This document shows positions 5,370-51,403 of a stretch of DNA of 64,000 nt, piece after piece. This DNA comes from an uncultured Phycisphaerales bacterium (GTDB lineage: Bacteria; Planctomycetota; Phycisphaerae; Phycisphaerales; SM1A02). The first letter of the stretch is position 1; the number at the start of each line of letters is the position of its first letter. The stretch covers positions 58 to 64,057 of the forward strand of contig CAJQQE010000016.1 of NCBI GenBank assembly GCA_905480395.1, read 5' to 3'. The position numbers were made by a program, and so were the translations under genes. Below the pieces are notes generated by a model. That model was given only the letters and a program-made list of their open reading frames with translations, ran no database searches and had not been told where the DNA came from.

Positions 5370-5450
5370 TTGTCATTCGGCGAGCTGTTTTCGTGGGCCA
5401 CCCGCCCGATTCAGTTTCGCCCACTGCCGTCTTACCACTACAGTGATGAC

Positions 5451-8675: not shown

Positions 8676-8687
8676 ATCACCGATCCC

Positions 8688-33640: not shown

Positions 33641-33755
33641 TCTCGATCACGGTGGGCTTCGTTGATCGAGAGTTCCAGAACGAAAAACATCAGGAATGCC
33701 GTTGTTCCAGATCTTCCTGATTCACGAGCGATAAAGCCGCGTGGAGGCTGTCGAT

Positions 33756-35132: not shown

Positions 35133-35587
35133 AACTGGATTCCAAGCCGACCGACCTCGTATTTGTAAAAATGACAAACCCCATCGAGGGCCCAATTTTG
35201 GACCTGAGGTGCGGTTCTCTCGTCCTATCCAGGGCGCGGTTTTCTCCACAATGAGTGTGGATGAGTCCTTCGAGAAGCGCCGGTAGAAACGGGTCTGCCT
35301 CATTGTGGGCGACGGCGAACATCCGATCAGCCCAACATCAACCCGTGAACACCCGAAACACCGACCTTCAACAGCGCGACCCGACAGCCAATTGACAAGG
35401 CGCTATCAAAATATAACAGCCACAAACCCCTTCTTTACAACGGCTTACGTTTTTATGGTCTAGGTTTTCCACAAACCGGCGCCTCTTTTCTAAGAGAGAA
35501 GAGATAAAGAACTCTTTCCTCTCTAGAAGAGACCCTCCGACAACATCGTGAAGGGTGTGTTTTCGTTGTGGAAAAGTGTTGGGGGTG
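35133..35587. other. putative chromosomal replication origin (oriC): DnaA-box cluster + AT-rich segment
   Basis: One-mismatch matches to TTATCCACA: TTCTCCACA 35242-35250 (+), TGTGGATGA 35256-35264 (= TCATCCACA on -), TTTTCCACA 35465-35473 (+), TGTGGAAAA 35567-35575 (= TTTTCCACA on -). My hand count gives 40% and 42% G+C for lines 35401-35460 and 35461-35520, against 62-77% in counted coding lines (56401, 61801, 6001, 21181). Confidence 0.6.
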
Positions 35588-36445
35588 TCAGTGCTGGCAA
35601 GTTGGGCAAAAAGTCGTGGTGCGAGCAGCGATCGTGAGAACCTCGAGCGGACCTTGGCAGCCAAGGCAGGGGAATCCTCCTCGACCGTAGACCCGGTGGT
35701 TCTTGATAAACCCCCCCGATGAGCCGTCGGGCAGGATGTGATCCCGCAAGGTGCTTCCACCAGCCTCGATGGCGACCCGGAGCGTTGACCGAATGGCGGC
35801 CGCCAAGCGGGTTGATTCGGGTCGCGAGATCGAATCACCGGTCCGGGCGGGATGAAGACCCGCCCGATGTAGGGCTTCGTCAGCGTAGATATTCCCTATT
35901 CCCGCTAAGACAGACTGGTCAAGAAGGGCAGCCTTCAGAGAACGCCTGGTTCCCCCCAGAAGGTCGTGGAGACGGTTCCCTCGGATCGAGGTCGCCTCTG
36001 GTCCGAGACCCGTTAGAAGGCGACTCTGACAGTCCTCGACCGAATCAAAAAGGTAGACGCCGCCAAATCGCCTCGGATCAATGAACGACATTTTTATCTG
36101 TTTTTGGGAGCTCTTTGGTGGGGTGATCGTCCAGACCAAATGCCTGTGGGGCGGGACTGGATGGCGGTTCAAACCCTCTTCGATCGTGATTCGCCCAGAC
36201 ATTCCCAGTCTGATGATCATTCCGCCACTACTGGAGAACAAGACCACCAACTGTTTTCCCCTTCGGTCCACAGATTCGATGACCTGGTGTTGGCCAACAT
36301 GGTCCACAGAGAGGCGCCCTTTTCGACGAGCAGACCGATCTCGAACCACGTCTCGGCGGTGGACCCGAACCTTTTCAATCAAGCCACCAGCCACCACCTG
36401 TTGGACCTGCCGGCGAATCGCTTCAACTTCCGGAAGTTCTGGCAT
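35588..36445 (-). CDS. mutM: formamidopyrimidine-DNA glycosylase (Fpg/MutM)
   Basis: The ATG at 36445 gives MPELPEVEAIRRQV (catalytic Pro2/Glu3). H2TH region present. C-terminal zinc finger CLGCQGPL...FCPTCQH. Confidence 0.9.
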   Translation of the reverse strand: MPELPEVEAIRRQVQQVVAGGLIEKVRVHRRDVVRDRSARRKGRLSVDHVGQHQVIESVDRRGKQLVVLFSSSGGMIIRLGMSGRITIEEGLNRHPVPPHRHLVWTITPPKSSQKQIKMSFIDPRRFGGVYLFDSVEDCQSRLLTGLGPEATSIRGNRLHDLLGGTRRSLKAALLDQSVLAGIGNIYADEALHRAGLHPARTGDSISRPESTRLAAAIRSTLRVAIEAGGSTLRDHILPDGSSGGFIKNHRVYGRGGFPCLGCQGPLEVLTIAARTTTFCPTCQH

Positions 36446-36628
36446 TGAGCTAAATCTAAAAAAGAGTTTTTGACCATTCCGACGCACCGCCGCGCTCATC
36501 AGAAAGTGCAAACACCGGAATCAAGAGGGGGGCCGACTATACTCAAAGAGTTCAAATCCAATTCGCTGCGAGGGCATGCTGTAAGCCCCTCAACCATTTC
36601 CCACCGCGATACACGATACGGAAACACG

Positions 36629-37690
36629 ATGACCGATCCAAAGTTGCATCAGGATGACCCCGCCGCCTCCGCTTCGGAGGTTCAGAATGTCTTCAATAGG
36701 ATTCGAGGTGAGGTTCAGAAGGTAATCGTTGGTCAGGAAGATGTTGTCGAGGAGGTGCTGATTGCCATCTTCTGTGGCGGCCATGCGATTATCGAAGGGG
36801 TGCCGGGGTTGGCGAAGACGCTGCTTGTCCACACCCTCTCAAGCACACTCAATCTCCACTTCTCCCGGATCCAGTTCACCCCCGACTTAATGCCGTCGGA
36901 CATGACCGGAACCGAAGTGATCGAGGAAGACAAGTCGACCGGACAGAGAAGCTTGAGATTCGTACCCGGTCCAATCTTTGCGAACATCATCCTCGCGGAC
37001 GAGATCAACCGCACGCCACCAAAGACCCAGGGCGCGCTTTTGGAAGCGATGCAAGAACGACAAGTCACGGCGGGGGGTGAGTCCCACCCACTTCCCAGCC
37101 CGTTCTTTGTCCTTGCCACCCAGAATCCAATTGAGCAAGAGGGAACATATCCGCTTCCCGAAGCCCAGCTCGACCGTTTTATGTTCAACATTAAGGTCGG
37201 CTATCCCACCGAAGAAGACGAGTTGGCCATCGTCCAACGAACCACCACCGACGAATCTGCTTCCGCAGATCAAATTCTCACTGGCGAAGACTGCCTCCGA
37301 ATCCAGAACTTGGTCCGCCAAGTTCCGGTGGCGCCCCACGTTGCCCGGTATGCACTCCGAATCGTGCGCTCAACCAGAGTTCGCGAGTCAACAGATGACA
37401 AACCAGAGATCGTTCGCAACTACCTTTCGTGGGGTGCGGGTCCTCGCGCGAGTCAATTCCTGGTTCTCGCGGCAAAGGCAAAGGCGTTGATCAGTGGGAC
37501 ATCACATGTCACTCCAGAGCATATTCGCTCGGTGGCACTCCCCATTCTTCGACACCGGTTGATCACAAACTTCAACGCAGAGGCGGACAACATCAACACC
37601 GATGACATTGTGAAGCGGCTTCTGGAGATCACCCCGATCGACGAATCCAACACAGAGACCAGAACCACGCTCGACTCTGTAACCCACTGA
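36629..37690 (+). CDS. MoxR-family AAA+ ATPase
   Basis: From the ATG at 36629: IVGQEDVVEEVLIAIFCGGHAIIEGVPGLAKT (Walker A), ILADEINRTPPKTQGALLEAMQERQVT (Walker B / AAA_3), ATQNPIEQEGTYPLPEAQLDRF. Confidence 0.9.
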   Translation: MTDPKLHQDDPAASASEVQNVFNRIRGEVQKVIVGQEDVVEEVLIAIFCGGHAIIEGVPGLAKTLLVHTLSSTLNLHFSRIQFTPDLMPSDMTGTEVIEEDKSTGQRSLRFVPGPIFANIILADEINRTPPKTQGALLEAMQERQVTAGGESHPLPSPFFVLATQNPIEQEGTYPLPEAQLDRFMFNIKVGYPTEEDELAIVQRTTTDESASADQILTGEDCLRIQNLVRQVPVAPHVARYALRIVRSTRVRESTDDKPEIVRNYLSWGAGPRASQFLVLAAKAKALISGTSHVTPEHIRSVALPILRHRLITNFNAEADNINTDDIVKRLLEITPIDESNTETRTTLDSVTH

Positions 37691-37793
37691 TTCTTATGGT
37701 TCTTTGGTTGATTCAACCATTTTTAAGCACCAACCAGCCCCTGACCCAGAGACGGAGAACCCGTTGACCGATTCGAACCCGGGATCCGCCGGC

Positions 37794-38750
37794 ATGCGTG
37801 CCGAACAGTATCTCGCTCCCGAGACGATCGGGCAGCTGACGTCATTTGAGTTTCGAGCTCGAATGATCGCCGAGGGTGTGATGAGTGGAATGCACCGTTC
37901 GCCGTATCAAGGTCTTGCGGTTGAATTCGCGGAGCATCGACAATACGTTTCTGGGGACGACCTCAAGCATCTCGACTGGAAGGTCTACGGCCGAAGCGAC
38001 AAGCTTTATCTCAAGCAATATCAACAAGAAACCAACCTTGATGTGGTCATTCTTGTCGACGCGTCCGCGTCCATGAGGTTTGGAACCCTCAAGGTGAAAC
38101 AAGGGTGGGGCGGCACCGACGCATCCTCGCGGATTAACACCTGGACTAAATTTGATCACGCCACCGCGATTGGCGCGGCGTTGTGCTACTTGGCACTTCA
38201 ACAGCGAGATCGCGTCGGGCTTTCGATGTTTGCCGACGGAATCCAAGCCCAAGTCAAACGATCCAATGCGAAGACAACTTGGCGAAACGTCGTGCGAACC
38301 CTTGCGACCGAAACCGTAGACAGCACCACTGATTTCAAGAAAGTCGTCGAGCAAACTTTGGCAACCGTGTCTAATCGTTCACTCTTTGTCATCGTGAGCG
38401 ATTTTCTTGTCCCGACCGAGACGGTCCGGGCGGGGCTCGCTCGACTCCGGCACCGTCGTCACGACGTCATGTTGATGCAGGTGTTGGATCGACAAGAACT
38501 CCAATTCGATCTCGATGAACCCTCGCCATTCGAGGGTTTGGAAGGGGAGGGCCGAGTCAACATCGACCCAAGGGTGATTCGGGAAGATTATCTTTCCGCC
38601 CTCACCAATCACTGCAATACCCTCGAGAAAACCGCGCGAAGCCTTGGCTTTGATTACCTCCGATTCGATTCCCACGGGTCGGTTGGGCCGGCACTTGCCG
38701 CACTGTTGGGCCGCCGAGCACTTCTTGCCCGCGGAGGGCGGGCGGGATGA
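37794..38750 (+). CDS. DUF58 protein (vWA-like, MoxR partner)
   Basis: HRSPYQGLAVEFAEHRQYVSGDDLKHLDWKVYGRSDKLYLKQYQQETNLDVVILVDASASM (DUF58 core plus DxSxS). The ORF track opens at TTG 37704; the first ATG is 37794. Confidence 0.85.
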   Translation: MRAEQYLAPETIGQLTSFEFRARMIAEGVMSGMHRSPYQGLAVEFAEHRQYVSGDDLKHLDWKVYGRSDKLYLKQYQQETNLDVVILVDASASMRFGTLKVKQGWGGTDASSRINTWTKFDHATAIGAALCYLALQQRDRVGLSMFADGIQAQVKRSNAKTTWRNVVRTLATETVDSTTDFKKVVEQTLATVSNRSLFVIVSDFLVPTETVRAGLARLRHRRHDVMLMQVLDRQELQFDLDEPSPFEGLEGEGRVNIDPRVIREDYLSALTNHCNTLEKTARSLGFDYLRFDSHGSVGPALAALLGRRALLARGGRAG

Positions 38751-40915
38751 CCTTTGTCACCACATCACTCGCCGTCGCAGGCGTCATCGCCGCCGCGATC
38801 CCGATTCTGATTCACATCCTTCTTCGTCGCCGCCGAAAACCCATGCAGTGGGCCGCGATGTCACTCCTGATTGAAGCAGCTCGCCGACATCGACGGAAAG
38901 CGAGGCTTGAACAGATCATCCTCCTGACCGTTCGAGCGGTCATGCTCATCCTGCTTGGGGCGGCACTCGCTCAACCACTCTTCGGAGATCGAGTCGGTGT
39001 GGCGGGGTTGAGGACGACACACATCATTCTTGATGACGGAATCATCAGCGGACTCATTGAAGCTGACGGAAGAACTTCCTTTGAAAGGCAGGTGGCCGAC
39101 GCAGTCACCTTTATCGATTCACTCCCCAGTGGCGATCAGGTATCGGTCATCTTGGCCGGAGCGCCGGTTCGATTCCTTATTGAATCACCCACGACTGACC
39201 ACCGGTCGGCAATTCGTGCCATCGAGACACGACAGAGCCGAGAAGGCGCCACCGACCTCGCATCCGCGCTGGAACTTGCCGACACCACCCTCGATCGCGA
39301 AGGGGTTCAAGGGGTACGGATCTTCAGTGACTTCAGGCGGGGCAGTATCGATGATCGTCGCCGACCACCAATTCTCCACGGACCAGCAGGATCGCCGATT
39401 GAACTCACTGCCTCGATGCCGATCAACGAACCCGCAACCAACATCCAGGTGACCTCAATTAAGACGGCCCGGAGCCCACTTTCCACCATGGGAACTGGTG
39501 ACCTCCTCCTTGTTGAAGTAAAACTCCGCCGGACCGGACTCACTCCCGCCATGGTTTCGAACGTTCGTCTCGAGGGCGACGCGATGTCTGGAGTGGAAAC
39601 CCGAAAAGTCGAATGGTCACCAGGCCGCACCGAGATACAAGTTGATTTTCAAGTAAGAGTCGACACTGATGGTGGGGTGCTTGAAGTGGTGGTCGATCCA
39701 GACGCACTCCCCCTTGACGACCAACGGTTCGTCACGGTTGATGGTCGTGAACCAACCCGTGTTCTCTTGGTTGACCGAGATGAACTGGCAGGCTCAACCA
39801 GGCTTGATCGACTTCGCGGAACTGATTGGTTCGAACGGGCGTTACTTCCGTTTCCAGAGGCCGCGATCGCAGAAGCAATCACGATTGATCGAGTCGACCC
39901 AGCAACCATTAATGATCGTGATCTTGAAGGAACATCAATGGTCGTGATTGGACGACCAGACTTGCTTCCTCTGGAATTCAACCCCACACTCGCGAACTGG
40001 ATCCGCCGGGGCGGAATCGCAGTGGTACTTCCTCCTGGCGAAGTGACGATTCGTCCTTGGGCCTCACCACTGCTTGAAGAACTCAACCTTCCATGGTCGG
40101 TCTCACTCGAACCTTCTCGGGTCGATCCACCCCGGTCACTCTCCGCCGAACAACCAAGCGCCGCACTGACCACACTCCTGGATGCTGAACTCGTCGAACT
40201 CGCGCCGAGTGTGAGAATTGATCAACGATTGCCAGTCACCGACGTTCCTGACGGCGACGTGGTACTCCTTGACGACCAAGGGGACCCAGTCGTCTTGGAC
40301 GCACCCATCGGGGCGGGAAGAATTGTCTTCTTCGCGGTCAACCCAGAACTAGAGTGGACAGATCTTCCAGTAAGACCACTCATGGTTCCCCTGGTTCAAG
40401 AGATCGTTCGACAAGGGTCCGCGCTTTCGAAGCGTGACATTGATGGTGTGGTCGGCATTCGGCCACCCATGGTGCGTCAGTCGAGTGTCGCAACAGTCAC
40501 CCTTCCTGGATCGGCCTCACAAACAGTCACTGGCACCGAACTCCCGATCCCAGATCGAACCGGAGTGGTGGAGGGTTATGACCTCAGTGGCAATCTCGTC
40601 GAACGAATGGTGGTCAATCCCGATACCGATGGTGGTTTCGTCGATCTTCTTGCCCAAGAGGCGGTGGCGGCGTGGCTTGAATCATCAGGGTCCTGGCAAT
40701 TCACCGGACCCGACGCGGTGGTCGTCGAACAAATCGATGAGCGAAGCAGCATGGCTGTGATACTCATGGCCATCGTGCTCTTCTTAGCGTTTCTCGAGAC
40801 CTTGCTGGCACGGTGGTTTACCCGTGGTGGTCTTCGGAGCAGTCGATCAGCCGGCCTGACCGGCGCGAATGCTGATTCTGAACAAGATCGTTTTGGGAGA
40901 GGGGCCGCCGCGTGA
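38747..40915 (+). CDS. BatA-N (aerotolerance-regulator N-terminal, double-TM) domain membrane protein
   Basis: LAVAGVIAAAIPILIHILLRRRRKP...ILLTVRAVMLILLGAALAQP is the BatA N-terminal double-TM signature. Degenerate vWA-like start (HIILDDGIISG). C-terminal TM (MAVILMAIVLFLAFLETLLARWF). ATGA overlap with the DUF58 gene. Confidence 0.8.
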   Translation: MTFVTTSLAVAGVIAAAIPILIHILLRRRRKPMQWAAMSLLIEAARRHRRKARLEQIILLTVRAVMLILLGAALAQPLFGDRVGVAGLRTTHIILDDGIISGLIEADGRTSFERQVADAVTFIDSLPSGDQVSVILAGAPVRFLIESPTTDHRSAIRAIETRQSREGATDLASALELADTTLDREGVQGVRIFSDFRRGSIDDRRRPPILHGPAGSPIELTASMPINEPATNIQVTSIKTARSPLSTMGTGDLLLVEVKLRRTGLTPAMVSNVRLEGDAMSGVETRKVEWSPGRTEIQVDFQVRVDTDGGVLEVVVDPDALPLDDQRFVTVDGREPTRVLLVDRDELAGSTRLDRLRGTDWFERALLPFPEAAIAEAITIDRVDPATINDRDLEGTSMVVIGRPDLLPLEFNPTLANWIRRGGIAVVLPPGEVTIRPWASPLLEELNLPWSVSLEPSRVDPPRSLSAEQPSAALTTLLDAELVELAPSVRIDQRLPVTDVPDGDVVLLDDQGDPVVLDAPIGAGRIVFFAVNPELEWTDLPVRPLMVPLVQEIVRQGSALSKRDIDGVVGIRPPMVRQSSVATVTLPGSASQTVTGTELPIPDRTGVVEGYDLSGNLVERMVVNPDTDGGFVDLLAQEAVAAWLESSGSWQFTGPDAVVVEQIDERSSMAVILMAIVLFLAFLETLLARWFTRGGLRSSRSAGLTGANADSEQDRFGRGAAA

Positions 40916-43311
40916 ACACCGACTTTGGCCGATGGCTCCTGGGAATTCGTGATCTCCCCGTCGATGCGGGCAACCTTCAGATCGCTTGGGAACGACCACT
41001 TCCAGGGTGGATTTGGTTCTTGGCGATCGCGGTCTGCGTCGGGATCGCATTTTGGTCCTACAGCAGGCTCGACGCGAGCCGGCGAGCGCGGGGAATCCTC
41101 GCCACAACTCGGATCGGAATACTGGTTCTGCTCGTGGTGGCCATCGCTGGACCAATGATCGAGCTTCCGAGGGAACTGGTTGAGCCCGACTGGGTCGCGG
41201 TTCTGGTCGATCGAAGTCGCAGTATGCAAGTTCGGGATGGCCTTGAGGATCCCGAGGGACGTCGAAGTCGTGAACAGGATCTACAGCGCATTTTGGAGGA
41301 GGCAGGTCCGGCGTGGCGAAACCCCGGTGATACCCGCGAGATCCTTTGGCTTGGGTTCAGCGATGGTGTCTTTGATCTTGAACTTTCGAAAGAGGAGACG
41401 GTCCCCGGCGAAACATCTTCATCCGAAGAGATTGTCTCACCAGCGCTTCCGGGATCGACTCCAATCATCAATAGTGGTGAGGCTGATGGTTGGCGGACAC
41501 GGATCGCACCCGCATTTGAAGAAGTACTTCGACGAACGGCTGGTCGACCACTTGCTGGTGTGGTGCTCATCTCTGATGGGCAGACAAATTCACCACCGGA
41601 TCGAGACCTCATTCGTCGGATCGTTGGTGCTGCCGCCGGGGTGCATACGATCCCTTTAGGTGCCGAGATTCCCATGGGGGATACCGGAATCAATCGGGTT
41701 GAAGCACCCCGACGTGCGTTCTCGAAGGATGCAGTTCCAGTCGCCGTTCGACTCAGTAACCGAGGCCGGAGCGGGCTGGTCAAAGTTTCGCTGGTCGACG
41801 ACCGTGATGGGACGATCTTGGATTTCACCGAGATTGAGCTCGATCCAGATCAGGAGATCATGGACACGGTATTGACCGCGGCACCCTCAAGATCTGAGGA
41901 AGACACAGGGTCTCGCCAATGGTCCGTTCGGATCGAGGGTGAGGCAGACCTTGTACCTGAGAACGACACGATCACGCTCGATATCGAGTTTGTCGATCGG
42001 CCACTTCGAGTCTTGTACATCGAGGGATATCCCCGTTGGGAATACCGGTATCTCAAGAACCTTCTGGTTCGCGAACCATCCATCGAGAGTTCAGTGATGC
42101 TTCTCTCGGCCGATCGTGATTTTGCTCAAGAAGGAAACACACCGTTGGCAAGACTGCCACGGACCGCGGAGGAATTCGCGGCTTTTGACCTGATCATCCT
42201 CGGCGACATTCCTTCGGGATTCCTCACCGATTCAAGACAAGAGTTGATTCAAGAACAGGTCGCTCGACGTGGTGGCGGACTGGTGATGATCGCTGGACCG
42301 CGATCGATGCCTTCAAGTTGGGGCGGAACCCCACTCGCAGATCTCCTGCCTTTCACCGGAAATCTCGACCTCGATCGTCATGACCGGCCAATGCTCGCTC
42401 GCCCCACCGATGTCGCGACCCGACTGGGTGTCTTGCGGCTTGTGGTCGGGGATGATTATGGCTGGCCCGAGGCTTTGATCGATCCAAGTTATGGATGGTC
42501 CCAATTGCAGTGGGTGCAGAACATTAATCTCGACCGATTGAAGCCAACCGCGGAAATCCTCGCGGAAGTGATTCCAGCCGACGGTGATCAGATTGATGCG
42601 ACTCCGTTGGTCTTGGGCATGCGCTATGGTGCTGGTCAAGTCTTATATGTCGCCACCGACGAGATTTGGCGATGGCGATACGGTCGAGGTGAACTTCTGC
42701 CCGAGCAATTCTGGGTTCAATTGCTCCGCCTTCTTGGTCGTGAGGCCGTTCAAGGTGATCAACCCGTCCGCTTGCTTGTCGAACCGAGACAAGCGGTCAT
42801 CGGTCGTCCCGTCAGGGTCACCGTCGATTTGCTCGATGCAATCTCGGGACTCCTTCCTCCTGATTCAGTGGCAGTCGAAGCCTTTGATGACCAAGGTGTC
42901 TTGGTTGGAACGGTGGAGTTGCCAGCCAGCGGCGAGGCGTCGTGGGCAGGAACTTGGATTCCACCAGAAGTCGGAACCGTCGAGTTTCGAATCGCCCAAC
43001 CCGGGCTCTCAGCGCTGGCGGGTGGGATCACATCCTCGATCGAGGTGCTTCGACCCGACGACGAACTTCGTGATGCGGATGCGGATTACGACTTCCTGGC
43101 CACGCTTTCTGAAGAAACAGGAGGTCTCGTGCATCTTGTAGATGGAACACCTGGGCTCCTTGATCGTGTTCACGAACAACTACCGAATCGAGCAATCATC
43201 ACCGAACAGCCGCTCCGGGAGCGGATCTGGACCTCACCCCTCTTCTTTGCGCTCTTTTTACTCTTAGCGACCCTCGAATGGACGGGCCGTCGACTCGCTC
43301 GACTTGACTGA
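40912..43311 (+). CDS. vWA-domain membrane protein with GATase1-like (DUF4159/ThuA-like) module
   Basis: Two N-terminal TMs. MIDAS VAVLVDRSRSMQV (DxSxS) and VVLISDGQTN. Also VLYIEGYPRWEYRYLKNLL...FDLIILGDIP...GGGLVMIAGP. C-terminal TM. GTG start in a GTGA overlap with the upstream stop. Confidence 0.75.
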   Translation: MNTDFGRWLLGIRDLPVDAGNLQIAWERPLPGWIWFLAIAVCVGIAFWSYSRLDASRRARGILATTRIGILVLLVVAIAGPMIELPRELVEPDWVAVLVDRSRSMQVRDGLEDPEGRRSREQDLQRILEEAGPAWRNPGDTREILWLGFSDGVFDLELSKEETVPGETSSSEEIVSPALPGSTPIINSGEADGWRTRIAPAFEEVLRRTAGRPLAGVVLISDGQTNSPPDRDLIRRIVGAAAGVHTIPLGAEIPMGDTGINRVEAPRRAFSKDAVPVAVRLSNRGRSGLVKVSLVDDRDGTILDFTEIELDPDQEIMDTVLTAAPSRSEEDTGSRQWSVRIEGEADLVPENDTITLDIEFVDRPLRVLYIEGYPRWEYRYLKNLLVREPSIESSVMLLSADRDFAQEGNTPLARLPRTAEEFAAFDLIILGDIPSGFLTDSRQELIQEQVARRGGGLVMIAGPRSMPSSWGGTPLADLLPFTGNLDLDRHDRPMLARPTDVATRLGVLRLVVGDDYGWPEALIDPSYGWSQLQWVQNINLDRLKPTAEILAEVIPADGDQIDATPLVLGMRYGAGQVLYVATDEIWRWRYGRGELLPEQFWVQLLRLLGREAVQGDQPVRLLVEPRQAVIGRPVRVTVDLLDAISGLLPPDSVAVEAFDDQGVLVGTVELPASGEASWAGTWIPPEVGTVEFRIAQPGLSALAGGITSSIEVLRPDDELRDADADYDFLATLSEETGGLVHLVDGTPGLLDRVHEQLPNRAIITEQPLRERIWTSPLFFALFLLLATLEWTGRRLARLD

Positions 43312-43455
43312 TCGGAGAAACCTCGCCGATTCGAGCTCGAATCAGCGATTCCGGTCGAAACTATCGAAGATCCTCTGTTTTCTAGGCGTCAGGCCTCAGA
43401 TTGAAGCGAATCTTCCACAGGTGACTGACACCTATAGCTGGAGCACACCACCACG

Positions 43456-46400
43456 ATGTCCGCGATCGACGAACTCATCCCAAGACTTCACCGAGTCAGA
43501 AGAGCCTTACAACGAGCTGTGCTGGAGCGACGAATCGCGACCACGGTTTCGGTCGTCATCCTCTGTTTCGTGGTGATGGCGATGGCGGACCGAACCCTCC
43601 GTTTCCCGGTGGGCCTTCGGTGGACGACGTTGATTCTGGGTCTGGGGTGGCTTGGTTGGTCAATTCGGACTCATCTCTGGTCGGCCATCCGATTTCGTCC
43701 GACCCTGGTTGATGTGGCGCTTCGAATCGAAACATTGGCACCGCCGCTCGCGGGTCGTCTGGCGAGTGGTGTTGAGTTTGCGACCTCCGACGTCGGCAAT
43801 GCCAATCCACTTGCCGCAAGAGCGCTTCGGGATCTTCAGCATCGAGTCTCAACCGTGAAATTTGAAGAGATTGTTGATGCCAGGCGGGCTCACCAATTAC
43901 TCGCGGTCGCAATTTTCGCTGGGTTGATGCTGACCTCTCTGGTGTTGTGGCGGCCGGTCGACGCATCCATTGCGACCAAAAGAGTCCTCGCACCCTGGAC
44001 CGACGCCCGATGGCCAGCTCGCACCGAGGTGGTCGGTCTTCTTGATACAGATCTGGTTCACGCCCGAGGTGAACCACTTGCAATGGCCGCCGAACTCGTC
44101 CGGGGGGATCTTGAAGGAGATCGAGTCTTCCTCAATATTCGAAACATTCGTGACGGGGTCAAAGGTGATTGGCAACGGTTGGTGCTGACTCGGCAACAAG
44201 GCCGCCGCTTTGAGCGGGTCATTGATACCGATGCTGATGAGATTGAGTATTCGTTCGCGACCGACGAGGTTGAGACAGACTCTTCAACGATCCGATTGTT
44301 TCCGGCACCACAGATCAGTACCGCGATGGCGATTGTCACACCGCCGACGTACGCATCAAGCCGCGGCGAGATTCAGGCGGAACTCGGATCGGGAACCGAC
44401 CGTCGGTCCCGTCTGACCGAACCCGCCCTTGAAGGCTCGCGTCTCAAACTTGATCTCACCTTGACCAGGCCGGTCCCAGTCGACCGAGCCGAAGATGGCG
44501 GGGTCTCCCGATCATTCATTGAGAAGACCCTCATGGTTCCGGATGAGGCGAGGGTTGATCTAGAGATTGATCCAACCAATTCGACTCGTTGGCAGATCTC
44601 GGTCTTGTTGGAGCGTGGTGGCGATATTGGTTTGTCGCTTGTTGACGAGTACGGTCTCCAGAACATCGATCCCATCCGGTATCGAGTGGACACGATTCCT
44701 GATCGCGCGCCGACCACCACCATCAGCCGACCAGCAACCGACCAAACTGTTTCGATCGATGCGGTGGTGGAGGTTCAGGCGGAAGCTCGAGACGATGTCC
44801 GCCTTCAATCGTTCGAGATCGAAGCAACTTTGGTTCGAGGTGGCGTCGACTCACAAGTCGAGTTGATCGCGGAGTTGGAAACCGGCACCGCTCTAAAATC
44901 TGTGGCAGATGCGACTTTGCGAGTGGAATTTGGGGTGACAGATCTCAAACCGGAGATCGGTGATGAGATACTCCTGGTTGCGATCGCGTCCGATGAGTAT
45001 CAAGTCTCCGGAGTCCCACGAGATTCAGTTCGAAGTGCCGCCAGAAGACTCCGGGTCGTTTCCAGTATTGAGCTTGCGGAGCAGCTTCAATCAGCACTTT
45101 CTTCGATCCGGCGATCAGCGATTCGGCTTGACCAAGACCAAGGCGGCATCTCTGATGCGGTTCGCCGGGGCGGTCCTTCGCGGAGTTCGGTTCGGGAGCA
45201 GGGACGACTGGGCGATCGGATTGCGAGTGCTCGTGATGCCCTGGAATCAATCGAACAACGTCGAAATGAAAATCGCCTCGACGATGCGATGCTTGAAGAG
45301 ATCATCGATCAGGCTCAAGATCTCTTAGAAGCGGCCGGCGAGGCGTCGGAAAAAGCGGTGGCGTCCTTGGACGAAGCGGCCCGCGAACAATCATCGACGG
45401 GATCCAGTGGCAAGTCGACCACATCGACGCCATCGAGCACTGAGGCCGGCCCCCAATCTGAAGATCAAGCCTCGAATGATGGGTCGTCCGAGGCTTCTGC
45501 GTCATCTGAAACAAACCAGGCAGAAGAAAACCAAGGCGAATCCACATCCTCTGAAGCTTCAAATTCAGAGGGGAAGGCTTCAGAAAATTCGCCGTCGGCC
45601 GAGCCACAACCCGGTACTGATTCTTCGGCTGGCACCCCCTCTGAGAACGCTGGGGAATCGGCGTCGTCTTCAGAATCAGGGCCGTCAGGAGACTCCAGCG
45701 AGCCAGGGAGTCCCAGTGATCCAAGCGATCCAAGTGATCCAAGTGATCCAAGTGATCCCGGTGATGCAGGCGAATCGGGCGAACCACAACCATCGAGTTC
45801 CACAACCCAAGCGGAACAAGATGCCATCGACGCACAGGAAGAAGTTCGGGCGGAGTTGGCTGACCTTGCGGAACTTCTCGATCGCGGCGAGGACGCGTGG
45901 GTGGTGTCCCGACGAATTCAGCAGATGGCGGAGGATCTCGCCGAACTCCAAGAACGAACCAGCGAACTCGCGGAAGATTCAGTGGGTCGCGATCGCTCAG
46001 AGCTCACCCCCGAAGAGCGCCGTGAACTCGACGACATCGCCAGGGAACAAGGTGAGTTGGCGGAGGAAGCAGACGACCTCGTTGCAGAACTCGAAGAACG
46101 CGGCGCCTCACTCGATCAGATCGATCCAGCGCAAGCCGCTGGCCTTCGTGCGGCCGCTCGGGACGCTCGCGATCAAGGCCTCGAAGAGAAAATGAGAGAG
46201 GCTGAGGAAGGAGCGAGAGAAAATCGTTTGCAGCAGGCTGGCGAAGCACAACAGCAAGCGGCCGAAGCACTCCAGCAAATGCAGGAGACCATCGAAGAAT
46301 CTCGAAAGGCGGAAGTGGCCGAGCTTCAACGACGAATCGCAAGCCTCGTTGAAAGCCTCACTGGTTTGATCGAAACCAGCGAGACCGAAATAATAAACCT

Positions 46401-47406
46401 TGCTCGCGTCGAAGGCCCAGATGATCTCGAACGAATCGCCGCTCGCGCTAGTGCGTTGGTCACCTTGAATGGAAACACCATCGCGGTCGCTGCCGAAGCT
46501 GCGGCAGCAGGCTCGGGTGGCGAACGTATCTCAAGGTTGATTGAACGGGCGGGTCGAAACCAGGGTGCGGCCATCGGCGATCTTCGAGCGGATCCGGTTC
46601 GGATCGAGGATTCCCGAGCCAATCAGGAGCGAGCCCTCTCCGCACTTCGTGAAGCATTGGTGATCGCGGAAGAAACCGCGGAGCAACTTGCAGAAGAACA
46701 AGCTGCCGAGCGGCGATCGGAATTGTTGGCCGCCTATGCGATGGTGCTGGAGACCCAGATTGGAATTCGCATCGAGACCGAGAAGATCCGGCCGCCGGCC
46801 GGAGATCGGCTGAGTCGTCGGGGACTGGTGACGGCCCGTCGTCTGGCCACAGATGAGCGACAACTCGGTTCAGCGCTCGAGTCGATGCAAGATGAGTTTG
46901 AGGAGATCACCGACTCACTGGTCTTCTCGATGACCCATCGAAACCTCGATCTCTGGGTCGAATCCGCCGCCACTCGCCTTCGTGAGGGTCGTCCAGATCT
47001 TGAGACGATCGAACAACAGACCATGATCATTGACGCGATTGCAGGCCTTGCCGCGGCGCTTGATCAAGAGCAGCAAGACGACGATCCATTCGCGGAACCC
47101 GAAGACGGGGGTGGCGGTGGTGAGCAGGCTGGAGGCGAGCAGGGTGAGCAACCACCAGAGCCATTGATTCCTCCGATCGCAGAACTCAAGATGCTTCGGT
47201 CAACCCAGCAGCAGATTCTGGATGCGACTCGTCGACTCGATGCCGTTCGGGCCTTGGACCCATCTGTGGAATCTGGAGATCGAATCACCGATCTGGCTCG
47301 GCTCCAAGCAGACCTCCATGCGGTGGCGACCGCCTTGCTCGACCAACTTCAACCAGCCCCTGTGGCCCCACCGGAAGGTGGCGCCGAAAGAGGACCTGAC
47401 CGATGA
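43456..47406 (+). CDS. 1316-aa membrane-anchored protein with acidic low-complexity linker and long Glu/Gln/Ala-rich coiled coil (DUF4175-like by recollection)
   Basis: Three N-terminal TM helices (IATTVSVVILCFVVMAMA; WTTLILGLGWLGWSI; LLAVAIFAGLMLTSLVLW). About 450-aa beta-rich region. Ser/Glu/Pro-rich linker with (PSD)5. About 550-aa helical region (EELAEEADDLVAELEERG...). Confidence 0.75.
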   Translation: MSAIDELIPRLHRVRRALQRAVLERRIATTVSVVILCFVVMAMADRTLRFPVGLRWTTLILGLGWLGWSIRTHLWSAIRFRPTLVDVALRIETLAPPLAGRLASGVEFATSDVGNANPLAARALRDLQHRVSTVKFEEIVDARRAHQLLAVAIFAGLMLTSLVLWRPVDASIATKRVLAPWTDARWPARTEVVGLLDTDLVHARGEPLAMAAELVRGDLEGDRVFLNIRNIRDGVKGDWQRLVLTRQQGRRFERVIDTDADEIEYSFATDEVETDSSTIRLFPAPQISTAMAIVTPPTYASSRGEIQAELGSGTDRRSRLTEPALEGSRLKLDLTLTRPVPVDRAEDGGVSRSFIEKTLMVPDEARVDLEIDPTNSTRWQISVLLERGGDIGLSLVDEYGLQNIDPIRYRVDTIPDRAPTTTISRPATDQTVSIDAVVEVQAEARDDVRLQSFEIEATLVRGGVDSQVELIAELETGTALKSVADATLRVEFGVTDLKPEIGDEILLVAIASDEYQVSGVPRDSVRSAARRLRVVSSIELAEQLQSALSSIRRSAIRLDQDQGGISDAVRRGGPSRSSVREQGRLGDRIASARDALESIEQRRNENRLDDAMLEEIIDQAQDLLEAAGEASEKAVASLDEAAREQSSTGSSGKSTTSTPSSTEAGPQSEDQASNDGSSEASASSETNQAEENQGESTSSEASNSEGKASENSPSAEPQPGTDSSAGTPSENAGESASSSESGPSGDSSEPGSPSDPSDPSDPSDPSDPGDAGESGEPQPSSSTTQAEQDAIDAQEEVRAELADLAELLDRGEDAWVVSRRIQQMAEDLAELQERTSELAEDSVGRDRSELTPEERRELDDIAREQGELAEEADDLVAELEERGASLDQIDPAQAAGLRAAARDARDQGLEEKMREAEEGARENRLQQAGEAQQQAAEALQQMQETIEESRKAEVAELQRRIASLVESLTGLIETSETEIINLARVEGPDDLERIAARASALVTLNGNTIAVAAEAAAAGSGGERISRLIERAGRNQGAAIGDLRADPVRIEDSRANQERALSALREALVIAEETAEQLAEEQAAERRSELLAAYAMVLETQIGIRIETEKIRPPAGDRLSRRGLVTARRLATDERQLGSALESMQDEFEEITDSLVFSMTHRNLDLWVESAATRLREGRPDLETIEQQTMIIDAIAGLAAALDQEQQDDDPFAEPEDGGGGGEQAGGEQGEQPPEPLIPPIAELKMLRSTQQQILDATRRLDAVRALDPSVESGDRITDLARLQADLHAVATALLDQLQPAPVAPPEGGAERGPDR
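45712..45768 (+). repeat. in-frame 9-bp tandem repeat (ccaagtgat)n encoding PSDPSDPSDPSDPSDPGDA
   Basis: ccc agt gat / cca agc gat / cca agt gat / cca agt gat / cca agt gat / ccc ggt gat, read directly from the sequence. Lies inside the 1316-aa CDS. Confidence 0.9.
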
Positions 47407-48173
47407 TTTTCAAACCCTCGATGACCAGACCAGAAGAGGTTCGAAGGGTTCGGTTCGGCGTTCCCTTTCTCGCCTTCGCGATCGCAGGATCAGCGTTTTC
47501 CTTTCAAGAGGCGCCCATCGCACCACCCGAGCCGGTTGCTGATTCCCCAGCCACCGATGTCCCAGCGGACCCGCCGTCTCTTGACGATCTACTGGATATC
47601 GAAGGGGATGCTGATTCGGGCGCCGCGGAGGCAGCAGCCGAAGCGGAACGTCAACGGTCACTCGATGCTGCACTGGCGGAACAGGAACCGGAACAGGCGT
47701 TTCGGGCCGCCGTCACCGAGATGCTCCAATCGGTCGACCGTCTTCGTGATAACCAAGCTACCGGACTGGGGACCCAACGATTGCAAGCGAGAATCGTCGA
47801 TCGCCTTCAGGTACTGATTGACAGCGCCAAGAAACAACAGCAGCAGCAACAACAACAGCAACAGTCCAGTTCAAGCTCCAACCAAGAACAAAAAGACCCG
47901 GGCCGTCGAAGCGAAGGTGAACCACAACAGCAACAACAACAGGATGCACAGCCACGTGATGGGGATGGAGAGAGTACGGATTCAATCCAAAACCCCCCGC
48001 CACAATCCGCGGACTTAGAAGGTGTTCTTGACGAGAGCCGGATCGAATGGGGTGGTCTTCCACCTCGGGTCCGGGATCTCATCACTCAAGGTATGCGTGA
48101 CCAGGTCTCGCAGCTCTATCGTTCATTGACTGAGGCGTACTACCGACGGATGGCGGAGGAAGCGGGCGAATGA
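47403..48173 (+). CDS. secreted low-complexity protein with poly-Gln tracts
   Basis: Signal-like VRFGVPFLAFAIAGSAFSFQEAP. KKQQQQQQQQQQSSSSSNQEQ and PQQQQQQD tracts. Conserved-looking C-terminus WGGLPPRVRDLITQGMRDQVSQLYRSLTEAYYRRMAEE. ATGA overlaps at both ends. Confidence 0.65.
   Translation: MIFKPSMTRPEEVRRVRFGVPFLAFAIAGSAFSFQEAPIAPPEPVADSPATDVPADPPSLDDLLDIEGDADSGAAEAAAEAERQRSLDAALAEQEPEQAFRAAVTEMLQSVDRLRDNQATGLGTQRLQARIVDRLQVLIDSAKKQQQQQQQQQQSSSSSNQEQKDPGRRSEGEPQQQQQQDAQPRDGDGESTDSIQNPPPQSADLEGVLDESRIEWGGLPPRVRDLITQGMRDQVSQLYRSLTEAYYRRMAEEAGE
47835..47864 (+). repeat. (CAR)10 trinucleotide tract encoding Q10; a second Q6 tract lies at 47925-47942
   Basis: caa cag cag cag caa caa caa cag caa cag, read in the CDS frame. 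Confidence 0.9.
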
Positions 48174-49273
48174 GATCGAATCGACGACAACCAGGAATTC
48201 TTGCGGGCATGCTCATTGGGATGACCAGTCCACTCTTGTTGGCCGGGTATGCCCAGGCACAGGAAGACGCTGATCGGGTGATCCCCGGGGAAGCGGCAGA
48301 TCGACCCGGTGCCGAGAGTGCGCCGGCCAATGATGAGATGACGCCGGAATTAGATAACTCAGTTCGACGTGGGCTGGCCTCACTCGCCGCGATCCAGAAC
48401 ACAGATGGTTCCTTCGGTCGAGGTCGATACGGCCGCCACGTCGGAATCACCGCCCTATGCGGTCTGGCATTCATGGCGGACGGTCATGTTCCAGATCGAG
48501 GCCGCTACGGGACGGTTGTTTCTAAAGCGTTGCAGTTTGTGCTCGATAATGCGACTGAGACGGGGCTACTGGCCGCCGAGACGTCGCATGGTCCGATGTA
48601 TGGCCATGGTTTCGCCACGCTTTTTCTCGGCGAAATCTACGGCATGAATCCCACTGACGAGCGGGTGCGCGACGCACTTGGTCGAGCCATTCAGCTGATT
48701 GTGAACAGTCAGAACGACGAGGGCGGTTGGCGTTACAACCCGGTGCCATTCGATGCGGATGTCTCCGTCACGATCTGTGAAATCATGGCGCTCCGGTCCG
48801 CTCGGAATGCCGGGATCAAGATCCCCCGAAAGACCATTGACAAAGCGGTTGAGTACGTTCGAAAGTGCCAGAATTCCGACGGTGGATTTCGCTATATGAG
48901 TCAGCAGGGTGGCTCGGCTTGGCCACGAACGGCCGCGGGTGTGGCCAGCCTCTTCTACGCTGGAATCTATGAGGACGATGCGATTGAGAAGGGGCTCGAC
49001 TATCTCGTCAAGGTGGCGTCTCCGGGTCGACCAGGCATGGGACCGGGAAATGCGCACTACTACTATGGTCAGTACTACGCGGTTCAAGCGATGTATCTGG
49101 CAGGCGGGGAATGGTGGGAACAGTGGTGGCCGGGAGTTCGCGGCGACTTACTGACTCGTCAGTCCGCGGATGGACTCTGGGTCGATCATCAGATCGGTGA
49201 CGCCTATGCCACCGCGATGGCGTTGATCGTCTTACAGATGCCCAAGCGATACCTTCCAATCTTTCAGAAATGA
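48170..49273 (+). CDS. secreted prenyltransferase / squalene-oxidase-repeat (alpha/alpha-toroid) protein
   Basis: Signal peptide (MLIGMTSPLLLAGYAQA). Recurrent repeat motifs: QNTDGSFGRG, GPMYGHGFATLFLGE, QNDEGGWRYNP, QNSDGGFRY, QSADGLW. Confidence 0.75.
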   Translation: MRSNRRQPGILAGMLIGMTSPLLLAGYAQAQEDADRVIPGEAADRPGAESAPANDEMTPELDNSVRRGLASLAAIQNTDGSFGRGRYGRHVGITALCGLAFMADGHVPDRGRYGTVVSKALQFVLDNATETGLLAAETSHGPMYGHGFATLFLGEIYGMNPTDERVRDALGRAIQLIVNSQNDEGGWRYNPVPFDADVSVTICEIMALRSARNAGIKIPRKTIDKAVEYVRKCQNSDGGFRYMSQQGGSAWPRTAAGVASLFYAGIYEDDAIEKGLDYLVKVASPGRPGMGPGNAHYYYGQYYAVQAMYLAGGEWWEQWWPGVRGDLLTRQSADGLWVDHQIGDAYATAMALIVLQMPKRYLPIFQK

Positions 49274-49277
49274 CGCT

Positions 49278-50543
49278 GTGGAGCACCTGTTGACGCGACG
49301 CATCGATCATCCTCCGACCCATCGCCTTCTCGCGGTCATTCCTTTGGCCCTCGCGATGGCCATTGACGTTCAAGCCCAGGATGATCGGGAACCACCGAGA
49401 CCGGTCGGAGGTTCCATTCCAGCACGGATTCTTGACCAAGATCTGAATGAACACCCCGCCGATCCAATTGTGATTGATGCGACCAAGATCATCGGCTGGG
49501 ATCATCCCGGGGGAATCCCCAAGGCGCTTCCGATCGATTCAGCACTCACGGTGATGGTGGGACCGGCGACCGAACGAAGTTCAACGCCGGAATGGCGATT
49601 CATTCGCAAACGTGCGGGCGATCAAGATGAGCTCCGTGGACCATATATTCGGTTTGTAGACGGCCAATTGATTCCCGGCAGCCTCTTTGCCGACGGTACA
49701 ACGCCCCGGTGGCGAAATGCGTGGTTGCATGATCTGCCGATCGATCTGGATCGCATCTCAGAAATGCGATTGATCGATGGCGCTGAGATTCCTCTGGTCG
49801 AGGATGTCGACGAGGTGATCCTCGCGAACGGTGATCGAATACGGGGCTTGATCGAATCGATCGGCGCCGATTTGGTAATCGACCGTATGAAAGAAACAGG
49901 TCCGAGCCTCGCACGGATTCCCCTCGACCGGGTCGCCTCTTTCGCGATGGTGAATCCCAATGAAGCACCTCAGGGTATGAACGTTTGGTTCTTGGGTGGC
50001 CATCGCATCGCGGGTGCGGGCATCCGAATCGGCGATGATGGATATGTTCGGATTGATCACCCGGTTCTCGGTGGTGACATGGCGGAAGTACCGCTCGAGT
50101 TCCTGCGGGGAATCGTATTTAACGCAGAAAACGTGATTCCACTCGCTTCGATTCCGGTGACCATCGACGCGGGCGTGGCGGCCTGGCTTCGGCCATGGAT
50201 CCCCGAACCCACGATAAGTCTTGGCAATTGGCCCCTCGACGCGGCCCCGATTCGTCTGGATGGTCCGCTTTTGGCCACTTGGCAACTTCCGGTTGCCGGA
50301 TGCACGCTTCGTGCGATTGTCGAACTCCCCATTGATTCAACCCGAGGCCGTTTTGATCTCATTATCCGCGACGATCAGCGGGAGATTCTTCGGGTATCGA
50401 TCAATCCAGAAAATCCGGTCGAGGAGATTATGGTGCCCTTCACCTCTGATCGGTTGTCGATCGAGATTGAGATGGGGGATGACGGTCCCTTTATGGATGT
50501 GGCCACGCTGCGCGAGGCGATCATTATTAGGCCAAGGAACTGA
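49278..50543 (+). CDS. hypothetical secreted protein
   Basis: GTG start 4 nt after the upstream stop. Signal-like LLAVIPLALAMAIDVQAQ. No family recognised. Coding-like composition throughout. Confidence 0.6.
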   Translation: MEHLLTRRIDHPPTHRLLAVIPLALAMAIDVQAQDDREPPRPVGGSIPARILDQDLNEHPADPIVIDATKIIGWDHPGGIPKALPIDSALTVMVGPATERSSTPEWRFIRKRAGDQDELRGPYIRFVDGQLIPGSLFADGTTPRWRNAWLHDLPIDLDRISEMRLIDGAEIPLVEDVDEVILANGDRIRGLIESIGADLVIDRMKETGPSLARIPLDRVASFAMVNPNEAPQGMNVWFLGGHRIAGAGIRIGDDGYVRIDHPVLGGDMAEVPLEFLRGIVFNAENVIPLASIPVTIDAGVAAWLRPWIPEPTISLGNWPLDAAPIRLDGPLLATWQLPVAGCTLRAIVELPIDSTRGRFDLIIRDDQREILRVSINPENPVEEIMVPFTSDRLSIEIEMGDDGPFMDVATLREAIIIRPRN

Positions 50544-50547
50544 CCGT

Positions 50548-51264
50548 ATGTCGACGCTTCGCGACGAAGCCATCTGTGTGCGGCACTGGGATTTCAGTGA
50601 GACGAGTCAGACCGTCTCACTTTTCCTTCGAGATCACGGGATGCTTCGAGGACTTGCCAAGGGCGCCCGGCGTGAGCGAGGCGCCTTCAGTGGCGGATTT
50701 GATTTGTTCACCAAAGGCGAAATCGTCGCCATCGTGAAGCCTGGCCGCGAACTTGCAACCTTGACCGAGTGGACTCTTCTGGAGACGTATCCAGTCCTCC
50801 GCCGACAGGCTCCAGCAAATCGATGTGGTTGGTATCTCGCGGATCTGGTCGGGCGTTTCTTACATCAGCCGGAACCACATCCGAAGACTTGGGACGCGAT
50901 GGTCACAGCGCTGCAAGAGCTTGAGTCTGGGTGTTCGACGGATCGGGTGATTCTCGCCTTTCACTGGCGGTTGCTTTGTGATCTCGGTTACCGGCCTCGG
51001 CTTGATCTCGAAGATATCTCCGGAGAGACGGTGGCATTTAGTTCCGACGCGGGCGGTGTCGTGGCGGACACTGGCGCTTCAGATCGCTGGAGAGTTCGAC
51101 GCCCAACGATCGAACTCCTGGCGGAAGTCGCCGAGGCCGACGGGGTGATTCCAGAAACCGCGGATCCAGAGGCGACGACGCGGGCGAACCGCCTGCTGGC
51201 GACGTGGATTCGAGAACTGCTTGGTGTCGAAAGCGTCTCGATGCGCCTCTTGTTCGGGTCGTGA
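50548..51264 (+). CDS. recO: DNA repair protein RecO
   Basis: The ATG at 50548 gives MSTLRDEAICVRHWDFSETSQTVSLFLRDHGMLRGLAKGARRERGAFSGGFDLF (RecO OB-fold N-terminus). The ORF track start at 50221 overlaps the upstream gene. Confidence 0.85.
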   Translation: MSTLRDEAICVRHWDFSETSQTVSLFLRDHGMLRGLAKGARRERGAFSGGFDLFTKGEIVAIVKPGRELATLTEWTLLETYPVLRRQAPANRCGWYLADLVGRFLHQPEPHPKTWDAMVTALQELESGCSTDRVILAFHWRLLCDLGYRPRLDLEDISGETVAFSSDAGGVVADTGASDRWRVRRPTIELLAEVAEADGVIPETADPEATTRANRLLATWIRELLGVESVSMRLLFGS

Positions 51265-51403
51265 GGTGCGAAGGTCGGTTTTCGGACCCCTTGGCCAACG
51301 GCTCCGGCTTGATATCTCTTCACCCTTGGCGATTGCGAGTCGAAGTTGCTGGTGCGTTGGCCTGTTTCTCAGTGACTCAGGCGTTCGCGGGGAGGAGCAG
51401 GAG

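Follow-up and report, generated by a model that had tools for sequence, protein, structure and literature searches.

A conserved, uncharacterised Planctomycetota extension of the MoxR-DUF58-vWA operon type

Vanderlinde et al. 2011 (J Bacteriol 193:2684) reportedly described cmdA-D of Rhizobium leguminosarum as four genes encoding a MoxR ATPase of the MRP subfamily, a DUF58 protein and a pair of large membrane proteins. A mutant of this operon (RL3499-RL3502) has envelope-integrity and morphology defects according to the passages of two later papers that cite the work (PMC5700661, PMC3893208). Bat operons, known from Bacteroides fragilis (BatI) with homologs in spirochaetes and Riemerella, start with the order MoxR, DUF58 and BatA_N-anchored von Willebrand factor A (vWA) protein (PMC11834572) and go on with tetratricopeptide repeat (TPR) proteins (BatB/C/E) and BatD. 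Their role in oxygen tolerance is contested, as deletion of batA lowers peroxide survival in R. anatipestifer (PMC11834572), whereas L. biflexa from which all bat genes had been deleted shows no oxidative-stress phenotype (PMC3557215). In RavA-ViaA, NorQ-NorD, CoxD-CoxE and CbbQ-CbbO, a MoxR ATPase gene lies beside a gene for a vWA adaptor with the metal-ion-dependent adhesion site known as MIDAS, and such MoxR-vWA pairs are maturases of specific enzymes (PMC3893208). Here we describe eight same-strand genes, g1 to g8, at positions 36,629 to 50,543 of a 64,000-nucleotide stretch (hereafter the window) of contig CAJQQE010000016.1, from the assembly GCA_905480395.1 of an uncultured Phycisphaerales bacterium. 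Together these genes are a real, conserved and uncharacterised Planctomycetota extension of this known operon type. The genes lie where a first-pass annotation of the window had placed them and are listed here with a hairpin that falls between g4 and g5; the evidence for each is given in brackets.

36629-37690, + strand: g1, MoxR-type AAA+ ATPase of 353 amino acids (AAA_3, AAA_lid_2, Walker motifs)
37794-38750, + strand: g2, DUF58 protein with vWA fold (DUF58 profile, MIDAS motif DxSxS)
38747-40915, + strand: g3, BatA_N/vWA-like membrane protein (BatA_N, VWA_2, TIGR02226, transmembrane scan)
40912-43311, + strand: g4, vWA/GATase1-like membrane protein, paralog of g3 (DxSxS, GATase1_like, transmembrane scan)
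43309-43357, + strand: imperfect 19-bp hairpin in the g4-g5 gap, directly past the g4 stop (covariation and folding energy)
43456-47406, + strand: g5, protein of 1316 amino acids with transmembrane, immunoglobulin (Ig)-like and helical-tail regions (AlphaFold2 model, composition)
47403-48173, + strand: g6, small protein, predicted to be secreted (signal-like N-terminus, ortholog alignment)
48170-49273, + strand: g7, alpha/alpha-toroid protein, predicted to be secreted (Pfam, PDB sequence matches)
49278-50543, + strand: g8, all-beta protein, predicted to be secreted, with an NPCBM/CBM51-like C-terminal domain (AlphaFold2, Foldseek, family profile)

By composition, the closest characterised system would be the four-gene R. 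leguminosarum operon cmdA-D. The Cmd-type order, that is MoxR, DUF58, a BatA_N membrane protein and a GATase1-like membrane protein, is found in g1-g4 by way of the alphaproteobacterial Azospirillum, where a cluster of the composition reported for cmdA-D matches the order of the window: the g1-g4 profiles hit four consecutive open reading frames (ORFs) in order, with E-values of 1e-118, 3e-26, 1e-19 and 6e-21. This Azospirillum core (MoxR, DUF58, BatA_N/DUF4159, GATase1_like) stands alone, with no counterparts of g5-g8 adjacent. The window differs in that cmdA-D has four genes only and in that the third Azospirillum protein carries DUF4159 with no detectable VWA_2. That the job of the core is wholly unknown, as had been stated in the first-pass annotation, is too strong a statement: conservation of the four-gene form is broad, and cmdA-D is genetically tied to envelope integrity in the citing passages of PMC5700661 and PMC3893208. 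With the Bat operons the locus shares MoxR, DUF58 and the BatA_N-anchored vWA proteins that follow, but where those operons continue with TPR proteins and BatD, the window has GATase1-like domains and g5-g8 instead. No TPR or BatD family match was found by Pfam at E<=0.1 in any of the eight proteins, and the cluster is therefore not a full Bat operon. The maturase pairs mentioned above suggest that g1 and g2 may likewise remodel a specific client; each of those pairs has one enzyme client, whereas the candidates in the window are structural-looking membrane or periplasmic proteins, with no enzyme evident. A literature search on MoxR/DUF58/BatA in Planctomycetes and on DUF4175/DUF4159 yielded no paper on the extended cluster or on g5-g8, which the first-pass annotation had called uncharacterised. 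A link to a "PVC-specific MoxR operon" in Kamneva et al. 2012 was considered and dropped, as that paper makes no mention of such an operon.

Conservation and rearrangement of the cluster

Conservation was surveyed with g4, the middle gene, as the anchor, so that the test was blind to g5-g8. One genome per GTDB species was sampled, which gave 80 Phycisphaerales-type loci with g4 identities of 87-40%; flanking genes were called by tblastn, 52 loci having enough downstream sequence and 64 being scored upstream. The genes g5, g6, g7 and g8 follow g4 in this order in 48 of the 52 loci, and g1, g2 and g3 precede it in 58 of the 64, in agreement with the first-pass proposal that the four additional genes belong with the MoxR/DUF58/BatA core; in a broader metagenome sample the membership is kept, in varied order. 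In one locus, 3.4 kb of inserted sequence separates g4 from g5. Where g4 identity is below 50% (median 44%), the median identities of the other proteins are 69% for g7, 68% for g1, 62% for g2, 38% for g6, 34% for g5, 32% for g3 and 29% for g8, so that the periplasmic toroid g7 is as constrained as the ATPase g1. Homologs of g4 and g8 are found in metagenome-assembled genomes of marine Phycisphaerae and Phycisphaerales.

Other gene orders exist as well. Searched against plasmids by tblastn, g4 matched plasmid pPL62-3 of Planctomyces sp. SH-PL62 (Planctomycetia), Gemmatirosa and alphaproteobacterial chromids; the same search with g5 gave no match. Profiles built from the Phycisphaerales orthologs were run against the six-frame ORFs of pPL62-3 (the g8 match described below comes from a search of its annotated ORFs) and found, in order, g7 (2e-71), MoxR, DUF58, g3 (6e-37), g4 (4e-84), the N-terminal half of g5 (7e-20), its C-terminal half (2e-24) and g6 (9e-17); g7 is thus upstream of MoxR, and g5 is in two pieces. 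This g7 homolog is the single one among 72,556 plasmids, and it adjoins the same cluster. Its matches fall in two frames and it seems truncated; the plasmid-encoded DUF58 and MoxR also seem frame-broken (pPL62-3, our locus L082, 551-1386; L085, 3787-4623), DUF58 being annotated as two short coding sequences, which may reflect either decay of the cluster on the plasmid or sequence errors. In Gemmatirosa, g1-g2-g3 are followed by a g5-like protein of 1298 amino acids, and the g4 homolog lies 6.5 kb upstream.

With the pPL62-type g4 as anchor, metagenomes yielded 80 loci (92-27% identity), 30 of them with full flanks, and in these 30 g7 is near the core in 28 and g5 in 26. Three orders occur: order A, the pPL62-3 type, reads g7-g1-g2-g3-g4-g5N-g5C-g6-(g8); order B runs from g1 to g8 as in the window; and order C reads g1-g2-g3-g4, an insert, then g7-g5. 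Because membership is kept through this rearrangement, it points to functional linkage and not to inherited synteny. The insert of order C in one locus (L137, 12204-16718) encodes a TPR protein of 1504 amino acids with a PQQ/BamB-like beta-propeller, and PQQ-like beta-propeller and SIMPL-domain proteins are encoded just upstream of the g7 homolog of pPL62-3 (NZ_CP011276, 76433-79509); propeller/TPR proteins may thus be optional members of the cluster. The earlier suggestion that the TPR-type Bat partners had been replaced fits the eight proteins of the window, none of which has a TPR, but it is lineage-specific, given the TPR and propeller giant of L137.

Predicted properties of the eight proteins

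The MoxR, DUF58, BatA_N/vWA and prenyltransferase-like toroid calls of the first-pass annotation are upheld by Pfam matches in g1, g2, g3 and g7. The ATPase g1 matches AAA_3 (2.4e-63, 212 bits) and AAA_lid_2 (1e-17, 64 bits), its Walker motifs, A reading GVPGLAKT and B reading ILADEINR with DE invariant, are conserved in 45 aligned orthologs, and the nearest solved structure is 2R44 (8.5e-84). With this AAA_3 core, lid and Walker motifs, and with DUF58 and vWA genes directly downstream, g1 is a MoxR protein of the MRP type; its score against the bpMoxR profile (42 bits) is far below that for AAA_3, and the cluster of the window contains no beta-propeller gene such as belongs to a bpMoxR ternary system. 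The g2 product matches DUF58 (PF01882) at 1.9e-37 (129 bits, cut-off 23.4) and has an intact MIDAS, whose DxSxS motif is unchanged across 68 of 68 orthologs; a PDB sequence search with it was uninformative. Every product after the ATPase had been said to have transmembrane helices or a signal peptide, but a hydrophobicity scan of g2 found neither. Both g1 and g2 are predicted to be cytoplasmic.

The third protein, g3, matches BatA_N (4.7e-11, 43.4 bits, cut-off 25.9), VWA_2 (1.3e-9, 39.1 bits, cut-off 27) and TIGR02226 (7e-18, 64.6 bits), with transmembrane helices at residues 8-26 and 57-75 (the BatA_N hairpin) and at 669-687 (C-terminal). Its MIDAS is degenerate, the position reading D-[DN]-G-x-x-S. 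In g4 the vWA MIDAS is intact, DxSxS being invariant in 74 of 74 orthologs; the GATase1_like Pfam match is weak (9e-4), and the family profile matches the GATase1-like structures 3SOZ, 2GK3 and 3RHT. Two N-terminal transmembrane helices were found by the scan in g4, and a C-terminal hydrophobic anchor, under the scan threshold, was spotted by eye in the translation. The two proteins are paralogous, aligning across ~490 columns (hhalign probability 95.9%). In both, an Arg-rich loop lies between the first two helices and an acidic stretch follows helix 2, which by the positive-inside rule would place the large vWA/GATase1-like domains in the periplasm. This predicted topology agrees with that of the BatA-like BB0173, an inner-membrane protein whose vWA domain was found by experiment to be periplasmic (PMC5700661).

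The AlphaFold2 model of g5 residues 1-640 has a predicted local distance difference test score (pLDDT) of 93.3 and comprises a helical membrane bundle (1-178) and three Ig-like beta-sandwiches (190-535), followed by long helices. An acidic linker rich in S/E/P spans residues ~631-810 (densest at ~660-780), and the C-terminal region of ~500 amino acids is helix-prone and rich in Ala, Glu, Leu and Arg. Foldseek returned only generic tandem matches to Ig or macroglobulin (MG) domains (complement C3, alpha-2-macroglobulin, invasin, GldM) with a TM-score of ~0.15, and an exhaustive profile search (E<=1e-3) placed the N-terminal part in a family of 5688 clusters at 50% identity. In overall plan g5 resembles DUF4175 (PF13779) proteins, which have N-terminal transmembrane helices and then long extracytoplasmic low-complexity or helical stretches. 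It differs from them in that the window protein itself has no DUF4175 match at the gathering cut-off or otherwise, nor had any of the 7 orthologs scanned with Pfam. Sporadic, sub-threshold matches, at E ~1e-5 to 1e-6, occur in 2 of 30 and 2 of 37 g5 relatives, the best score being that of the Gemmatirosa homolog (26.1 bits, cut-off 27.3); the matching stretch is helical and may score by composition alone. An NCBIfam search of the g5 family gave compositional noise only, and the PDB sequence search with its profile retrieved a designed helical bundle only and was uninformative.

Plain signal peptides are carried by g6, g7 and g8, which are predicted to be exported. In g6, an N-terminal signal-like segment precedes a low-complexity Q/S/E middle, and the ortholog alignment shows the conserved motifs LDDLL and, at the C-terminus, W-G-x-LP-x-R...YY. 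The poly-Q run by which g6 had been described is present in only 20 of 48 orthologs. A Pfam scan of g6 gave no meaningful match; its family profile matches the syntenic 182-residue protein of pPL62-3 (3e-18). The signal peptide of g7 is of AQA type. Its matches to SQHop_cyclase_C (32.1 bits, cut-off 26.1) and Prenyltrans (27.9 bits, cut-off 26.5) and to squalene-cyclase-like proteins in the PDB (~2e-7) identify it as an alpha/alpha toroid of the terpenoid-cyclase/prenyltransferase fold. The DxDD acid motif of the cyclases is missing from g7, the aligned position reading DADV (D-A-D-V-S-V-T), which is near-invariant in the orthologs.

The last protein, g8, had been regarded as an orphan, a view that the structural and homology data do not support. 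Its AlphaFold2 model is all-beta (pLDDT 86, pTM 0.82), and the C-terminal domain superposes on 2VMG, a structure of carbohydrate-binding module family 51 (CBM51), with a target TM-score of 0.68 and an rmsd of 3.5 over 157 columns (Foldseek). Its profile matches residues 570-900 of a DUF1583_C+NPCBM protein of 912 amino acids on pPL62-3 (1.4e-11), and residues 756-895 of that protein, within the span of the g8 match, are NPCBM (2.3e-34). On this jelly-roll fold and homology, g8 is a divergent NPCBM/CBM51-like protein. The window protein itself had no match in a Pfam scan and does not reach the NPCBM cut-off, 5 of 36 g8 orthologs have weak NPCBM matches (best E 0.01), and the PDB sequence search with the g8 profile was uninformative. 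In the N-terminal beta domains, residues 128-134 and 178-190 (~49659-49847) contain the invariant motifs DGQ..PG and D...L.NGDR..G, for which no family match accounts. The whole had also been called envelope-spanning; the anchors all look inner-membrane, the signal peptides of g6-g8 are plain and no outer-membrane component was found among the eight proteins, so that this description is not supported.

Gene junctions and chromosomal setting

Overlaps of 4 nt join most of the genes, ATGA at 38747, 47403 and 48170 and GTGA at 40912, and g8 starts after a spacing of 4 nt, all as had been read at first pass; the g4-g5 gap measures 144 nt (43312-43455) and not 145. Alternative TTG starts for g2 lie at 37764 and 37704. 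Across orthologous loci, for which the junctions are estimates, g2/g3 is <=10 nt in 45 of 68 and g3/g4 in 67 of 76, each with a median of -4, and the g4-g5 gap is typically positive, with a median of ~89 nt. Because the -4 overlaps are kept in orthologous loci and the g1-g8 order recurs, this packing goes beyond chance. Four close relatives share the hairpin directly past the g4 stop, and two of its pairs show compensatory changes; its folding energy is -23.7 kcal/mol, with a z-score of just -1.84, and a scan of the gap detected no T-run terminator. It is possibly a sub-operon boundary or an RNA-stability element. A promoter scan of the locus gave signal at shuffle level, and an Rfam search of 33-53 kb gave no match. 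The strongest terminator-like hairpin seen (50596-50621) was considered as the operon end and was ruled out, as it is inside recO.

The same-strand run extends past g8, since recO (ATG at 50548) begins 4 nt past the g8 stop and is itself overlapped at its end by an HDOD-GGDEF gene (51221-52879). The recO and HDOD genes follow g8 in closer relatives only (L001, L003, L005-L009, L012, L041) and not in distant ones. Directly upstream, within 33741-36511, are dnaA (+) and the divergent fpg (-), and as the cumulative GC skew also has its minimum at ~38-40 kb, the cluster lies beside a likely replication origin. The dnaA-fpg-MoxR synteny is retained in most Phycisphaerales loci. Elsewhere in the window (5370-10136), a PSCyt1/PSCyt2/PSD1 protein (1101 amino acids) and then a DUF1501 protein (482 amino acids) form a planctomycete-typical pair that is treated in Kamneva et al. 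2012.

One machine or several: interpretation and significance

We lean, if only slightly, towards a single conserved cluster or machine, in which the widespread four-gene MoxR-DUF58-BatA_N/vWA-vWA/GATase1-like envelope operon and four further proteins would serve envelope integrity or organisation. A MoxR hexamer and the DUF58 vWA adaptor would act in the cytoplasm; g3 and g4 would be inner-membrane proteins with large periplasmic domains; and g5 would be anchored by its N-terminal bundle, with its three Ig-like domains and acidic/helical tail reaching into the periplasm, to which g6 (small and helical), g7 (the toroid) and g8 (a beta-sandwich protein with a CBM51-like domain) would be exported. 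Remodelling powered by ATP, in which MoxR-DUF58 would engage the short segments of g3, g4 and g5 that lie in the cytoplasm, could then assemble or switch a periplasmic scaffold, with the intact MIDAS of g4 binding partner proteins within it and g7 and the CBM-like module of g8 binding envelope lipid or glycan. What this would support is the integrity or organisation of the cell envelope, and not oxygen tolerance in itself. A bolder form of this idea, to which we give little credence, is an integrin-like, inside-out machine found throughout Planctomycetota, in which ATP-driven MoxR-DUF58 would switch the periplasmic MIDAS of g4, together with g3, through their transmembrane hairpins and so control a coiled-coil/Ig stalk formed by g5 and carrying the lipid- or glycan-binding g7 and the CBM-like g8, thereby setting periplasm architecture or wall anchoring in bacteria whose envelopes are unusual.

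Several observations weigh against a single machine. Four of the 52 Phycisphaerales loci (L017, L022, L044, L059) stop at g4 and have unrelated or opposite-strand genes next. At L081 (6067-17266 of a 3.6-Mb contig) the set is split: a TPR-sulfotransferase gene on the opposite strand stands between g3 and g4-g5-g6, an aminotransferase gene is found where g7 would be expected, and MoxR, DUF58, g7 and g8 are all absent within 10 kb. Five loci (L016, L017, L021, L032, L072) have DUF58-g3-g4 with no MoxR within several kb upstream, and the ATPase gene can therefore sit elsewhere. The link to cmdA-D runs through the Azospirillum homolog and the reported composition of cmdA-D. Transcription, localisation and interactions at the locus are all predictions; the 144-nt gap with its conserved hairpin could separate two transcription units; the single-machine reading gives no account of how an ATPase in the cytoplasm could reach proteins that lie mostly in the periplasm; and the lipid or glycan ligands of g7 and g8 are candidates.

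Some of these observations would fit two unrelated units, g1-g4 being a complete Cmd/Bat-like module and g5-g8 a separate periplasmic set that is adjacent by origin-proximal synteny. The hairpin-bearing gap after g4, the usually positive g4-g5 spacing in orthologs, the four loci with other genes after g4 and the core by itself in Azospirillum speak for such a division, which we nevertheless consider unlikely, as g5 and g7 stay by the core despite reordering (g7 upstream of MoxR in one order, g7 before g5 in another), the sole plasmid-borne g7 homolog is at such a cluster and the g5 of Gemmatirosa comes directly after g3. Retention through rearrangement is the usual mark of functional linkage. 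On the other hand, the eight genes might be the Planctomycetota version of the Bat operon, with a role in oxidative-stress protection. The shared MoxR-DUF58-BatA_N/vWA start and the reduced peroxide survival of the R. anatipestifer batA mutant (PMC11834572) are in its favour, but the eight proteins have no TPR (BatB/C/E-type) or BatD domain, L. biflexa is unaffected by loss of its bat genes (PMC3557215) and the four-gene clusters with the nearest homologs belong to the Cmd type, with GATase1-like/DUF4159 domains, so that we hold this to be very improbable.

It is also conceivable, if doubtful, that the periplasmic proteins make up an enzyme or a capture apparatus and that the MoxR-vWA core does no more than mature it. 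Either g7 would have a glycan or a polyprenyl/hopanoid lipid as its target, with g8 as its carbohydrate-binding partner, or the Ig/MG-like domains of g5, the toroid and the jelly roll of g8 would together resemble an alpha-2-macroglobulin-type trap. Conservation of g7 at the level of the ATPase (69% median identity) is typical of enzymes, and its terpenoid-cyclase/prenyltransferase fold, the CBM51-like domain of g8, the resemblance of the g5 Ig domains to the MG domains of complement C3 and alpha-2-macroglobulin and the precedent of MoxR-vWA pairs that mature specific enzymes (PMC3893208) all point the same way. Yet g7 has DADV in place of DxDD, and there are no substrate-related genes within the cluster. 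The analogy to alpha-2-macroglobulin in particular is given low probability, because the sequence has no CGEQ thioester motif and the Foldseek matches (TM-score ~0.15) are to generic tandem beta-sandwiches.

For the single conserved envelope cluster that we favour, the significance lies with the wider family. MoxR(MRP)-DUF58-vWA operons (Bat, Cmd, Francisella and mycobacterial) occur widely, with effects on stress tolerance, on envelope integrity and on virulence. If an inside-out machine of the kind outlined above were true, the clients of MRP-type MoxR systems, Bat and Cmd included, would be identified. The cluster offers MoxR-vWA a defined group of candidate partners that are conserved, including a periplasmic toroid as conserved as the ATPase itself, and, as the set is kept in three gene orders, it turns the question of MoxR-vWA clients into one of testable protein pairs.

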